Shown here: positions 17,130 through 21,797 of the stretch, piece by piece
Numbering within the stretch: the first letter of the stretch is position 1
Layout: each line of letters starts with the position of its first letter
From: Halarcobacter sp.
Lineage (GTDB): Bacteria > Campylobacterota > Campylobacteria > Campylobacterales > Arcobacteraceae
Length of the DNA: 64,000 nucleotides
NCBI GenBank assembly: GCA_048571215.1
Contig: CP182352.1
Location: forward strand, 3,488,001-3,552,000
Direction of reading: 5' to 3'
Notes under the pieces: model-generated
The model's database searches: none
What the model saw: the letters and a program-made list of their open reading frames with translations, nothing else
Told to the model about the DNA's origin: nothing
Made by a program: the position numbers and the translations under genes

Positions 17130-17978
17130 CTATTGTAATAATCTTAAAACATTTTGTTGTGTATTGTTAGCTTGCGAAATAGCATAAGATCCCGCTTGCG
17201 AAATAATGTTTTGTTTATTGAAATTAGCTGATTCTTGCGCATAATCAACATCTCTAATGATAGACTCGGCTGCTTTAACATTTGTAGCTTGAGTCATAAG
17301 GTTTCTAACTGCAGATTCAACTTGATTTTGAGTAGAACCTATCTCCCCTCTATTACTATTAAGAGTAGTAATAGCAGAATCAATAACTGTTTGTTGAGAA
17401 GCAGCAAGAGTTTTACTAATACCACCAGCATCAACAGAAGTTTTTAAAGTAGCTAAACTTAATCCGCCTGTATTTGACTGAATTGCAGCAGTTGAAATAG
17501 TATCAGATGAAGTTTCTCCAATTTGGAAATTTAATCCAGCAGTTGCAGCAGAAGAAGTTGCACTAGATTGTAAAAGATACGTACCATTGTAGTTTGTTTG
17601 TGACGCAATATTATTTAACTGAGTAAGTAATTTACTAACATCATCGGCAATAGCATTTCTACCAGCAGTAGAAGTTGTATCAGTGTTTGCTTGAATCAAT
17701 TTAGCTTTGATAGTATCTAAGATATTAGATTGTTCTGACATAGATTTATCAGCGATTTGAAGTAAAGCAACAGCTGAATTACCATTGTCAACAGCTTGGT
17801 TAATAGATGAAGCTTGTGTTCTTAATTTATCTGCAATAGCAAGACCAGAAGCATCATCTGACGCTTTATTGATTCTAAGACCTGAACTTAATTTTTCTAA
17901 CGAATTTTTGATATTAAAATTCGTATTACTTGCACTTTCTTGTGCAGTTAATGATGAAACATTTGTATTAATTCTCAT
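17130..17978 (-). CDS. fla: Flagellin 1 (282 aa)
   Basis: MRINTN...LEKLSSGLRINKASDDASGL; IRDVDYA...VLRLLQ. The start at 17978 follows AAAGGA. Confidence 0.98.
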   Translation of the reverse strand: MRINTNVSSLTAQESASNTNFNIKNSLEKLSSGLRINKASDDASGLAIADKLRTQASSINQAVDNGNSAVALLQIADKSMSEQSNILDTIKAKLIQANTDTTSTAGRNAIADDVSKLLTQLNNIASQTNYNGTYLLQSSATSSAATAGLNFQIGETSSDTISTAAIQSNTGGLSLATLKTSVDAGGISKTLAASQQTVIDSAITTLNSNRGEIGSTQNQVESAVRNLMTQATNVKAAESIIRDVDYAQESANFNKQNIISQAGSYAISQANNTQQNVLRLLQ

Positions 17979-18092
17979 AATAGATCCTTTCTTATTATGA
18001 CACAATGTAAATATAATTTATATTTACTCCTAAAACATTCTTGTTTTATCAAGCATGGAGAACAAGTCTCCTCGGAATCCATTGATCCCTAC
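17979..18092 (-). promoter_or_regulatory. Structured 5' leader of flagellin 1 (four hairpins)
   Basis: Hairpins at 18074-18089, 18057-18071, 18040-18053 and 18007-18027; they covary with the flagellin 2 leader. Confidence 0.7.
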
Positions 18093-18098
18093 ACTGAA

Positions 18099-18132
18099 AT
18101 TATGACACTATTAAACTTAAAATTAGATTAAA
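18099..18132 (-). promoter_or_regulatory. Putative sigma70-type promoter of flagellin 1
   Basis: Minus strand TTTAATCTAATTTTAAG-N8-TGTCATAAT (extended -10); aligns with the flagellin 2 upstream region. Confidence 0.55.
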
Positions 18133-18384
18133 TTTATAAAAAATCAAGAAATGGATAAAATTATTTAAAATATTTTGAATTTAATTTCTAAGAGAGAGAT
18201 TTCATTTATACTATATTATCGTATTTATATACTTAAAATTAGATTAATTAAGTATATAAATAGAAATGGTAAAAATTATTATTTTAATATAGTCAAATTA
18301 TTGATTTTAGTTGGATATATAAAAGTAGTTATATAAATATTGATATTTAAACTTGGAGAAAAAAATCTTTACATAAAAATACAT

Positions 18385-18409
18385 AAAGTAGTAGTAAACC
18401 TACTACTTT
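18385..18409 (-). terminator. Intrinsic terminator downstream of flagellin 2
   Basis: AAAGTAGTAG-N5-CTACTACTTT followed by T-rich sequence on the minus strand. Confidence 0.7.
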
Positions 18410-18479
18410 AAGCATTTTTGTAATAATCTTAATAGAAATGCAATCTAAGTAAATAAATTTACTACTGCTAGATTACTTC

Positions 18480-19328
18480 TTATTGAAGTAATCTAAGAAC
18501 GTTTTGAGCGGTATTGTTAGCCTGCGAAATAGCATAAGATCCCGCTTGCGAAATAATGTTTTGTTTATTGAAATTAGCTGATTCTTTTGCATAATCAACA
18601 TCTCTAATGATAGACTCGGCTGCTTTAACATTTGTAGATTGAGTCATAAGGTTTCTAACTGCAGATTCAACTTGATTTTGAGTAGAACCTATCTCCCCTC
18701 TATTACTATTAAGAGTAGTAATAGCAGAATCAATAACTGTTTGTTGAGAAGCAGCAAGAGTTTTACTAATACCACCAGCATCAACAGAAGTTTTTAAAGT
18801 AGCTAAACTTAATCCTGTTGTATTTGACTGAATTGCAGCAGTTGAAATAGTATCAGATGAAGTTTCTCCAATTTGGAAATTTAATCCAGCAGTTGCAGCA
18901 GAAGAAGTTGCACTAGATTGTAAAAGATACATACCATTGTAGTTTGTTTGTGACGCAATATTATTTAACTGAGTAAGTAATTTACTAACATCATCGGCAA
19001 TAGCATTTCTACCAGCAGTAGAAGTTGTATCAGTGTTTGCTTGAATCAATTTAGCTTTGATAGTATCTAAGATATTAGATTGTTCTGACATAGATTTATC
19101 AGCGATTTGAAGTAAAGCAACAGCTGAATTACCATTGTCAACAGCTTGGTTAATAGATGTAGCTTGTGTTCTTAATTTATCTGCAATAGCAAGACCAGAA
19201 GCATCATCTGACGCTTTATTAATTTTAAGACCTGAACTTAATTTTTCTAACGAATTTTTAATGTTAAAATTTGTGTTAGCAGCAGCTTCCTGCGCATTTA
19301 ATGATGATATATTTGTATTAATTCTCAT
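18480..19328 (-). CDS. fla: Flagellin 2 (282 aa)
   Basis: Flagellin N- and C-terminal motifs; about 11 aa differences from flagellin 1. Confidence 0.98.
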   Translation of the reverse strand: MRINTNISSLNAQEAAANTNFNIKNSLEKLSSGLKINKASDDASGLAIADKLRTQATSINQAVDNGNSAVALLQIADKSMSEQSNILDTIKAKLIQANTDTTSTAGRNAIADDVSKLLTQLNNIASQTNYNGMYLLQSSATSSAATAGLNFQIGETSSDTISTAAIQSNTTGLSLATLKTSVDAGGISKTLAASQQTVIDSAITTLNSNRGEIGSTQNQVESAVRNLMTQSTNVKAAESIIRDVDYAKESANFNKQNIISQAGSYAISQANNTAQNVLRLLQ

Positions 19329-19450
19329 AATAGATCCTTTCTTATTATGACACAATGTAAATATAATTTATATCTACGCCTTAAAACCTTCTTGAAAAAA
19401 TCAAGCATAGAGAGAAAATCTCTTCGGAAGCCATTGCTCCCTAAAGTTAT
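19329..19450 (-). promoter_or_regulatory. Structured 5' leader of flagellin 2
   Basis: Hairpins at 19426-19441, 19409-19423, 19391-19405 and 19357-19377. Confidence 0.7.
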
Positions 19451-19680
19451 AATGTAATTATTACACACCAATTCTTAATATTAGTTTAAATATATTATAG
19501 TTACTGAAATATTTTTATATTTTGTATTAAAATAAAAATTATTCTATAATAAAGAAAACATATGTTTTGTATGTAGTAGTGAAAACTAGTGCTATAAGAG
19601 TTATTTTAAAATTTTTGATTGATTTAGATTACTTTTTATTAAAGTAGTCCAAGAATATTGTGACAGCAATGTATAAAGTA

Positions 19681-19705
19681 AAAGTAGCAGTTCTGCTGCT
19701 ACTTT
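19681..19705 (-). terminator. Intrinsic terminator downstream of flagellin 3
   Basis: AAAGTAGCAG-N5-CTGCTACTTT followed by TACTTT on the minus strand. Confidence 0.7.
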
Positions 19706-19779
19706 AATGATTATTATAATAATTTAAGAACGTTTTCAAGGAAACATTCTGCGTAGCTTACGCTACTAGTCCTAGATTA

Positions 19780-20628
19780 CTATTGAAGTAATCTAAGAAC
19801 GTTTTGAGATACATTGTTAGCTTGCGAAATAGCATAAGATCCCGCTTGCGAAATAATGTTTTGTTTATTGAAATTAGCTGATTCTTTTGCATAATCAACA
19901 TCTCTAATGATAGACTCGGCTGCTTTAACATTTGTAGCTTGAGTCATAAGGTTTCTAACTGCAGATTCAACTTGATTTTGAGTAGAACCTATCTCCCCTC
20001 TATTACTATTAAGAGTAGTAATAGCAGAATCAATAACTGTTTGTTGAGAAGCAGCAAGAGTTTTACTAATACCACCAGCATCAACAGAAGTTTTTAAAGT
20101 AGCTAAACTTAATCCTGTTGTATTTGACTGAATTGCTGAAGTTGAAATAGTATCAGATGAAGTTTCTCCAATTTGGAAACTTAATCCAGCAGTTGCAGCA
20201 GAAGAAGTTGCACTAGATTGTAAAAGATACGTACCATTGTAGTTTGTTTGTGACGCAATATTATTTAACTGAGTAAGTAATTTACTAACATCATCGGCAA
20301 TAGCATTTCTACCAGCAGTAGAAGTTGTATCAGTGTTTGCTTGAATCAATTTAGCTTTGATAGTATCTAAGATATTAGATTGTTCTGCCATAGATTTATC
20401 AGCGATTTGAAGTAAGGCAACAGCTGAATTACCATTGTCAACAGCTTGGTTAATAGATGTAGCTTGTGTTCTTAATTTATCTGCAATAGATAAACCAGAA
20501 GCATCATCTGACGCTTTATTGATTTTAAGACCTGAACTTAATTTTTCAAGAGAGTTTTTTATTGCACTATTTGTATTAGCTGCAGCTTCTTGAGCAGTCA
20601 ATGATGATATGTTTGTATTAATTCTCAT
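19780..20628 (-). CDS. fla: Flagellin 3 (282 aa)
   Basis: Flagellin motifs; only 47 bp downstream of trmA. Confidence 0.98.
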   Translation of the reverse strand: MRINTNISSLTAQEAAANTNSAIKNSLEKLSSGLKINKASDDASGLSIADKLRTQATSINQAVDNGNSAVALLQIADKSMAEQSNILDTIKAKLIQANTDTTSTAGRNAIADDVSKLLTQLNNIASQTNYNGTYLLQSSATSSAATAGLSFQIGETSSDTISTSAIQSNTTGLSLATLKTSVDAGGISKTLAASQQTVIDSAITTLNSNRGEIGSTQNQVESAVRNLMTQATNVKAAESIIRDVDYAKESANFNKQNIISQAGSYAISQANNVSQNVLRLLQ

Positions 20629-20675
20629 TTTTTAACCCTTACAGTTTGTATACTTAAATAATATCTAAGCTAAGT

Positions 20676-21797
20676 TTAAATTTTGTTTAAAATAACGCCA
20701 CTTTCTATGTGATTTGTATATGCAAATTGATCAAATAATGCAAATTTGGCAATTTTATGGGTTTTTGAGAGTATTTTTAAATCTCTATGAAGTGTTTCTG
20801 GATTACATGAGATATAAATAATTTGCTCAAAATCTTTAGCTAAATCTCTCGTAGTATCATCTAATCCAGCTCTTGGTGGATCCATAAAAATTGTACTAAA
20901 ATTATACGATTTTAAGTCTAAACCTTTAAGTCTGTTGAAAACCCTTTTTTCTTGTAATGCTTCAACAAATTCTTCTGAACTCATCCTAATAAAATCTATA
21001 TTTTTTATATTATTTAAATCACAATTTATTTTTGCAGATTTTATTGAGGTTTTTGAAATCTCAGTTGCTAAAACTTTTTTAAATTTGAAGCTTAAAGGTA
21101 TGGTGAAATTCCCCCCTCCACAATACAGTTCACATAGGTCATTTTCACTAGAATCTATATTATCTAAAACCCACTCAATCATTTTAATATTTACTTTACT
21201 ATTTGGTTGGGTAAAACCACCCTCCTGGTAGTAGAATTTAAGGTCTTTTTCTTTTATACAAATTGTATCCTCTATAAACTCTTTGTTTAATACAAGTTTT
21301 TGACCTCTACTTCTACCAATAATACTAATATTTAATTCTTTTTCTAATAGTTTTGCTTCTATTTCCCATTTGTGTTCAAGTTTTTTATGATAAATTAGGG
21401 TTACTAAGATATCACCTGTAGTGGATGTTAAAAACTCTATTGCATAAAGTTTGAAGCTTAATTCTTTATTTTCTTGAATTTTTTTTAAGAGTACTGGCAT
21501 AAGCTCTTTTATCTGTTTTGATACTATTTCGCAGGAGTCTATCTCTACAATTTTTTTGTCAAAACTTGTCATTGCATAGGATAGTGTTGGTTTGTCTTCA
21601 TCATCAAAATTTTTCCATATCCTAAACTCTGCTCTATATCTAAAATTTTGAGTTTCACTTTTTATCACATCAAAATCTATGTTAGTTAAATCTAAAAATC
21701 TATTTTTTTCTCTATCTTTTTTAAATAAAAGTTGTTCTTCATATGACATCTCATATAAGGTGCAACTACCACACTCTCCAAAATATTTACAATTCAT
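20676..21797 (-). CDS. trmA: tRNA (uracil-54-C5)-methyltransferase
   Basis: RYRAEFRIW, FTQPN, ELYCGGGNF, DPPRAG, YISCNP, FDQFAYTNHIE; N-terminal CxxxxxCxxC. Confidence 0.93.
   Translation of the reverse strand: MNCKYFGECGSCTLYEMSYEEQLLFKKDREKNRFLDLTNIDFDVIKSETQNFRYRAEFRIWKNFDDEDKPTLSYAMTSFDKKIVEIDSCEIVSKQIKELMPVLLKKIQENKELSFKLYAIEFLTSTTGDILVTLIYHKKLEHKWEIEAKLLEKELNISIIGRSRGQKLVLNKEFIEDTICIKEKDLKFYYQEGGFTQPNSKVNIKMIEWVLDNIDSSENDLCELYCGGGNFTIPLSFKFKKVLATEISKTSIKSAKINCDLNNIKNIDFIRMSSEEFVEALQEKRVFNRLKGLDLKSYNFSTIFMDPPRAGLDDTTRDLAKDFEQIIYISCNPETLHRDLKILSKTHKIAKFALFDQFAYTNHIESGVILNKI

Follow-up and report, generated by a model that had tools for sequence, protein, structure and literature searches.

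A lineage-wide covarying leader RNA of flagellin genes in Arcobacteraceae and a small basic protein that may be its partner

The window, a stretch of 64,000 nucleotides from contig CP182352.1 of a Halarcobacter sp., contains three tandem flagellin genes of 282 codons on the minus strand, flanked by trmA and two Maf-type glycosylation genes. The open reading frame of flagellin 1 (17130..17978, minus strand; 282 aa) matches the Pfam families Flagellin_N and Flagellin_C. Flagellin 2 (18480..19328, minus strand; 282 aa) is an open reading frame with 96% identity to flagellin 1, and flagellin 3 (19780..20628, minus strand; 282 aa) is an open reading frame with a Pfam match. Flagellins 1 and 2 each bear a structured 5' leader. 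Flagellin 3 has no leader; it starts 47 nt after trmA, and its start codon is predicted to be open (pairing probability 0.03). Terminator-like hairpins follow flagellin 2 (18384..18410, minus strand) and flagellin 3 (19681..19705, minus strand). The flagellin genes in 17130-20628 show only 34 to 45 differences per 849 bases, clustered at the gene ends, a sequence pattern that is consistent with gene conversion. Below, G000 denotes the genome of the window, other G numbers denote other genomes, and g numbers denote genera. This genome also has two distant, leaderless flagellin-like genes away from the flagellar clusters, at G000:C1:1058970-1059818 (minus strand; 48% identical to flagellin 1) and 1220250-1221068 (plus strand; 22% identical).

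Both leaders are built in the same way. The core of leader 1 (18038..18091, minus strand), defined by alignment, RNAalifold, and covariation, reads UA-P1-RA-P2-AUG-P3-AA: P1, a hairpin with a fixed 6-bp stem and a RAUN loop (18089-18074), is followed by a GA linker, P2 (18071-18057), an AUG linker, and P3 (18053-18040). A variable hairpin, P4 (18007..18027, minus strand), comes next, and in the minimum free energy fold a predicted hairpin, P5 (17976..18000, minus strand), pairs CAUAAU with the region of the flagellin 1 start codon at 17978 and holds the Shine-Dalgarno sequence AAGGA (17989-17985, minus strand) in its loop. Leader 2, with a core assigned on the same basis, has the form UA-P1-GA-P2-AUG-P3-AA (19389..19443, minus strand), with P1 at 19441-19426, P2 at 19423-19409, P3 at 19405-19391, P4 at 19357..19377, and a predicted P5 (19326..19350), identical in sequence to that of leader 1, at the flagellin 2 start codon (19328), all on the minus strand. 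The hairpins, linkers, and substitutions that an earlier note on this DNA had claimed for the two leaders are every one present in the sequence, the stretch of about 45 nt that it called identical ahead of both start codons is indeed 45 nt of identity, and its GGA counts of five in leader 1 and two in leader 2 are correct. That first reading overlooked three features: flagellin 3, which has no leader; P5, the hairpin predicted at the start codon; and the promoter motif described below. Folding z-scores are -2.87 for leader 1 and -2.18 for leader 2, with equally good folds in 1 of 200 and 5 of 200 shuffles, and the two copies in the window, taken alone, are modest evidence for structure. No further copies of the leader were found in this genome, and none lie before other genes.

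Much stronger evidence comes from the family. We located flagellin homologues in 172 of the 184 family genomes. The first 70 flagellin loci gave 142 upstream regions, 95 of which matched a core pattern written from the data, corresponding to 79 distinct leaders; a plain MAFFT alignment of these is the basis of the core-pair statistics. Across the 14 core pairs 99.0% of the cells are paired, versus 87.2% after shuffling, two-sided changes occur at 10 of the 14 pairs, and the covariation score is 0.371, compared with 0.137 ± 0.008 for shuffled alignments and at most 0.090 for slid registers. The comparison of flagellin upstream regions that the earlier note had suggested has given a score above both controls, and its claim of selection on RNA structure is borne out by strong family-wide covariation. 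RNAalifold independently gives the same 14 pairs and no others. Among 140 distinct leaders, the pairs with the highest mutual information within the core are the stem pairs. On a tree of flagellin coding sequences, coupled changes reach 0.92 for the 10 variable stem pairs versus 0.23 for 551 other column pairs; this tree was made from the first 150 coding bases of the flagellins of 133 leaders, and it is short and noisy, so that step counts are inflated. We consider it almost certain that the leader is a real structured cis element.

P1 keeps both its length and its RAUN loop. Length is unconstrained in the P2 and P3 loops, and the linkers show no variation or almost none. The conservation of the invariant positions is partly built in, because several of them were part of the selection pattern; the covariance-model search used below does not require them. 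P3 covaries fully yet is marginal in the ensemble, with a median pair probability of 0.44, which in this modeling is what one would expect of a fold held by a partner. Neither mutual information (140 distinct leaders) nor RNAalifold revealed a closing helix or a tertiary pair, and models with tRNA-like closure, four-way junction closure, or tertiary pairs were dropped for this lack of support. At gathering score, the Rfam covariance models match only three tRNAs in the window, and the leaders have no match up to an E value of 10, which agrees with the note's failure to recognize a cyclic di-GMP or other known riboswitch. We conclude that the flagellin leader is a covarying RNA found across the lineage and assignable to no known family.

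The covariance model detects the leader in 114 of the 151 family genomes. These represent 15 of 20 genera, to which a relaxed search adds one. Among 144 Campylobacterota genomes of other families, a sample dominated by two families, none has it. A pattern scan of 185,579 genomes gave at least 149 loci. Among the 149 matches listed, 119 stand ahead of a flagellin start, another 5 pair well and lie at contig ends, and 25 are without a flagellin, 23 of these 25 being unpaired. The titles shown for flagellin-linked matches are mostly Arcobacteraceae or Campylobacterota. In 20 further regions, all 27 matches precede flagellins. Placement of the leader is thus near-exclusive: it stands essentially only before flagellins. 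Phage copies were also considered and rejected, as 20 pattern matches in viral contigs included none that was paired and none before a flagellin. A few records titled Helicobacter or Colwellia (L167, L168, L170-L172, and L179) have the leader before Arcobacter-like flagellins, and these are likely mislabeled or misbinned.

Translational cyclic di-GMP riboswitches occur before flagellar genes, and second-messenger riboswitches usually serve varied genes. The leader would resemble the former in having a conserved core followed by a hairpin that is predicted to occlude initiation, and one might regard the core as the aptamer of a new riboswitch class, responding for example to cyclic di-GMP, with P4 and P5 as the expression platform. 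The invariant unpaired bases, the fixed length of P1, and the predicted occluding hairpin downstream would all fit a translational riboswitch, and A. butzleri has 25 cyclic-diguanylate proteins (PMC2147049). It differs from these riboswitches in that no Rfam riboswitch matches, the hairpins stand in series without a detected closing stem, and covariation gives no sign of a closing helix or tertiary contacts. Moreover, the leader has a single gene context, before flagellins only and at two sites in this genome, rather than the varied genes usual for second-messenger riboswitches, and a dedicated, co-occurring basic protein (see below) would be left unexplained. We regard a riboswitch as improbable.

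A promoter-like motif lies just upstream of both leaders. It consists of a TTAAnCTAAwwTTAAG box and a -10-like hexamer, at 18099..18133 (minus strand; hexamer 18104-18099) for leader 1 and 19457..19491 (minus strand; hexamer 19462-19457) for leader 2, with predicted starts at about 18092 and 19450, respectively. In Epsilonproteobacteria, transcription starts 4 to 8 nt after the -10 box, according to PMC3847290, and from this spacing we infer that the core lies inside the transcript. In 64 of 139 leaders the motif precedes the core by 7 to 21 nt; the remaining 75 of 139, many of them in tandem arrays, have no recognizable promoter of their own. The same motif is also present 34 to 107 nt ahead of the start codon at nine leaderless flagellins, which indicates that the leader is a separable insert downstream of the promoter. 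When the sites of this genome are ranked by the motif, that of leader 2, which was in the training set, is best and that of leader 1 is fourth; the other three of the top five belong to the flgK-fliD-fliS operon and to two genes without a name, which encode 220 and 306 aa and have no Pfam family over cut-off. The three sites beyond the window are at G000:C1:3614330, 989013, and 3010522, all on the plus strand. The shared motif may, judging from sequence, define a sigma28-independent late flagellar regulon. Its -10 hexamer is not of the consensus type. A sigma54 promoter was rejected: RpoN is present in G000 (G000:C1:3021098-3022345, plus strand), but by eye the motif has no -12 GC. A. butzleri RM4018, unlike this genome, has no RpoN (PMC2147049). 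Farther upstream, some 115 nt ahead of the promoter of leader 1, there is a second copy of the promoter box (18214-18249, minus strand).

Downstream of P3 the leaders fall into two types. In type I (92 of 140), CAUAAU pairs with the start codon, while in type II (36 of 140) an anti-Shine-Dalgarno strand pairs with the Shine-Dalgarno sequence; of 91 type I leaders folded one by one, 47 have G-C and 42 have A-U as the third pair of P4. The initiation region is predicted to be paired in 137 of 140 leaders, compared with 29 of 45 leaderless flagellins and 295 of 500 genome genes, figures that overstate the effect because the background is 59% and the leaders are related. In the window the start-codon pairing probability is 1.0 for both leaders, and about 8.7 kcal/mol would be needed to open their initiation regions at 30°C. 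For type I in general, the median opening energy is 5.9 kcal/mol, at the 63rd percentile of genome genes, and the value for leaderless flagellins is 5.5 kcal/mol; type II alone is high, with 9.8 kcal/mol (92nd percentile). P5 of leader 1 is a prediction only, and its invariant columns do not permit covariation. According to these fold models, both leader types are predicted to occlude the initiation region, by two different hairpins, and we think that the leader probably acts on translation.

It is also conceivable that the leader is no switch, serving instead as a stabilizer against 5' decay or as an address label that brings the abundant flagellin mRNA to the pole or the export gate, with the small protein perhaps as an adaptor. 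The core starts at or just past the predicted transcription start, 7 to 21 nt from the -10 hexamer, the occlusion energy of type I is ordinary, and flaA mRNA of C. jejuni localizes to the poles (PMC4894983). It speaks against this explanation that both leader types independently pair the initiation region, and protection of a 5' end would not apply to the many leaders inside tandem arrays that are without a recognizable promoter of their own. We therefore consider a stabilizer or label unlikely. In type I leaders, a sequence just 5' of the ribosome site (17994-18004 and 19344-19354 in the window, minus strand) is the same as the extended -10 element of the promoter; this could be coincidence, a relic, or a second promoter, and the P5 strand formed by it could be conserved for another reason than pairing. 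One metatranscriptome contained a fraction of 0.09 of the words, with contigs from relatives only; one of its contig ends carries the tail of a type II leader joined to a flagellin start and may be DNA.

The known regulators of flagellin are largely missing from the family. None of the 184 family genomes has a CsrA over cut-off, compared with 10 of 16 genomes of other families that do, and a diverged CsrA in the syntenic slot was rejected, since truB and ispE abut in this genome and leave no room. FliA (sigma28) is over cut-off in 0 of 184 genomes, the listed matches being frames of RpoD length; FlgM is found in 0 of 5 family genomes; and FlbT and FlaF have no match in G000, with Caulobacter as a positive control. 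FliW is present in 99 of 184 family genomes, is absent from 47 of the 114 that bear the leader, and occurs in the leaderless genera g10 and g22. A partner switch of FliW with a new repressor was dropped on account of those 47 genomes. FliW persists here without CsrA, as two paralogues in the family with patchy, lineage-wise loss (in this genome, G000:C1:1041240-1041611). The mechanisms proposed in the earlier note have fared accordingly: CsrA is excluded, FliW does not track the leader, and FlbT/FlaF was not found in this genome. Its argument that CsrA alone does not explain the leader holds, and its larger proposal of an undescribed control element for flagellin stands as far as an undescribed cis element of conserved structure is concerned, the post-transcriptional control itself being putative.

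Three more familiar devices can be discussed together. Leader 1 has five GGA motifs, as a CsrA target might, yet CsrA is absent, P1 carries a RAUN loop, and 33 of 133 leaders lack GGA once the Shine-Dalgarno sequence is set aside. P5 is AU-rich and weakens with temperature in silico, as an RNA thermometer would, but a thermometer has no need for invariant unpaired bases 60 nt upstream. The invariant AUG between P2 and P3 could be the start of an attenuator peptide; against this, the frames that it opens run from 3 to 29 codons and occur in all three phases (52, 44, and 37) with no frame conservation, and a leader peptide was rejected. Together, these devices are very improbable explanations of the leader.

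A different candidate emerged next to the leader itself. In many genera a lysine-rich, basic open reading frame of 62 to 73 residues (about 65) lies between the promoter and the leader. Of 184 family genomes, 144 have a clear match to this small protein, a count that includes one partial match and leaves out one borderline row with an E value of 9e-4; none of 274 genomes of other families has a match. Of the 114 leader-bearing genomes, 113 have it. In all 88 genomes where both are listed on one contig, no more than 74 kb separate its gene from a leader, and in 24 of them it lies directly upstream of the leader, within 400 bases. In the genome of the window, the gene (G000:C1:3465398-3465619, minus strand) is about 40 kb from the leaders, at the far end of the flagellin glycosylation locus and before recA. 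The flagellated genera g10 and g22 have neither leader nor small protein (G181 is closed, and G083 is in 4 contigs), and G181 of g22 has retained the promoter motif; the small protein thus tracks the leader and not the promoter. Fifteen of 37 leader-negative genomes have the small protein, all of them multi-contig drafts (seven listed, the rest taken from genus tallies). The co-occurrence may reflect one joint gain, as the informative double absences are in g10 and g22 only; these two may be a single event, and each of the other double absences can result from a single assembly gap.

The small protein has a net charge of +5 to +15 and 11 near-invariant lysine, arginine, or histidine positions, and its AlphaFold model is a short helix followed by a long helix, with a mean pLDDT of 89.5. 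It belongs to no Pfam, NCBIfam, or PDB family and has no name beyond "hypothetical." A search in 1.84 billion representatives gave 13 matches, none longer than 124 aa, its Atlas clusters are hypothetical Campylobacterota proteins scoring below 0.9, and fold searches returned only generic helical hairpins (best Z score 7.1, root mean square deviation 4.1, 60 aligned). TldR flagellin regulators and the helical hairpin of the TnpB proteins of IS200/IS605 elements form another point of comparison. Foldseek gave weak rows against ISDra2 TnpB (E values of 1.0 to 2.7), and in five of seven TnpB proteins a listed local match falls on one basic hairpin. The resemblance to this hairpin is weak, nonsignificant, and no more than a lead, and the small protein is without all other TnpB domains. 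An origin from TnpB is not supported, as the hhalign probability was 1.9% and the best of 60 column shuffles equaled the score (19.8 versus 19.7); that the small protein is a domesticated RNA-binding hairpin of this transposon protein is quite improbable.

We propose that the major flagellin mRNAs carry in this leader a family-specific 5' element that regulates them in cis, and that would be transcribed from a late-flagellar sigma70-type promoter common to the flgK-fliD-fliS operon. The P1-P2-P3 core would display the invariant unpaired bases (5' UA, RAU loop, RA, AUG, and AA) as a recognition site, and the output would be the variable P4 together with P5 over the start codon in type I or over the Shine-Dalgarno sequence in type II. 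The most likely binder would be the helical-hairpin protein of about 65 lysine-rich residues that is unique to the same lineage, and binding would decide whether P5 blocks initiation. As the sign of this putative control, we favor repression over activation. Flagellin synthesis would in this way be tied to filament assembly, replacing the lost CsrA-FliW and sigma28-FlgM checkpoints. We judge the chances to be about even that the major flagellins are under protein-bound translational control with the small protein as the binder, and we would say the same, neither higher nor lower, of the binding of the leader by the small protein taken separately. In a fuller version, the leader would represent a new RNA family, its 65-residue partner would be an RNA-binding protein of a new kind, and the two would form a checkpoint in which flagellin translation is off until the protein is exported or titrated at the completed hook-basal body; we offer this as a tentative idea, possible and rather doubtful.

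Alternatively, the core may be a protein-bound translational control site with another binder, such as flagellin, FliS, FliT, or a component of the export gate, and the small protein may be a separate flagellar accessory of the same lineage. The structural and placement evidence fits this equally well, the co-occurrence of the small protein has few independent contrasts, and members of its family weakly match the FliD model (best E value 5.6e-4, far below cut-off). A role as chaperone, export factor, or structural part is another possibility for a small basic protein from a flagellar locus. However, parts as general as FliS and flagellin would leave the lineage match unexplained, and the small protein is strongly basic, with its gene between promoter and leader in the 24 genomes mentioned above. 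Another binder is therefore unlikely in our opinion, although somewhat easier to imagine than the riboswitch or the stabilizer.

The closest known relative of the proposed control by the small protein, in the same bacterial order, is the flaA 5' UTR of C. jejuni with CsrA-FliW (Dugar et al. 2016, PMC4894983), which is likewise a structured flagellin leader with compensatory changes for which a translational checkpoint on flagellin is proposed, as we do here. That leader is 45 nt long and has two ANGGA loops and a sigma28 promoter. The Arcobacter-family leader, in contrast, is 105 to 145 nt long, has a different three-hairpin core and no conserved GGA, and goes with no CsrA, no sigma28, and no FliW dependence. 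In Alphaproteobacteria, FlbT and FlaF control the flagellin 5' UTR where sigma28-FlgM is not used. The likeness to that system is a lineage-specific protein, here a candidate, acting on a flagellin 5' UTR without sigma28-FlgM; the difference is that neither gene is present in G000 and that our candidate is a protein of 65 residues with no family match. The leader would work in the manner of the known translational checkpoints on flagellin, yet it cannot be assigned to any of these, and it has a plausible dedicated partner.

The leader is not described in the literature searched, where supplements outside the search and subscription papers may hold a prior mention. In a study that screened an Arcobacter genome (PMC6429828), none of the 14 rows of the Arcobacter table was tied to flagellin, and the string "flagel" was absent from 11 supplements. 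The main text and Word supplement of a study of 51 A. nitrofigilis intergenic regions (PMC8632094) contain no such motif, its spreadsheet and alignments being outside the search, and a term search of the main texts of PMC5737381 and PMC11109978, with supplements outside the search, did not find the leader. The pair of leader and small protein may replace the flagellin controls that were lost in Arcobacter-family bacteria, among which are emerging enteric pathogens as well as abundant marine sulfur oxidizers. If this is true, it would be a third independent way to couple flagellin translation with assembly, after CsrA-FliW and FlbT-FlaF, and it would add a new RNA family and a putative new family of RNA-binding proteins. 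Three parts of such a system can be tested: the promoter motif of late flagellar genes, the leader RNA with its covarying stems, and the small basic protein linked to this RNA.

The arrangement of the flagellin cluster is also shared more widely. In many genera it is headed by a leaderless flagellin right after trmA (20628-21797, minus strand, in the window), followed by leader-bearing copies, which suggests two regulatory classes of flagellin. At one locus of another genome (L043; G169:C1:3386300-3399400), 12 flagellins stand in tandem, 11 of them with leaders, and the copies alternate between those with and those without their own promoter motif.
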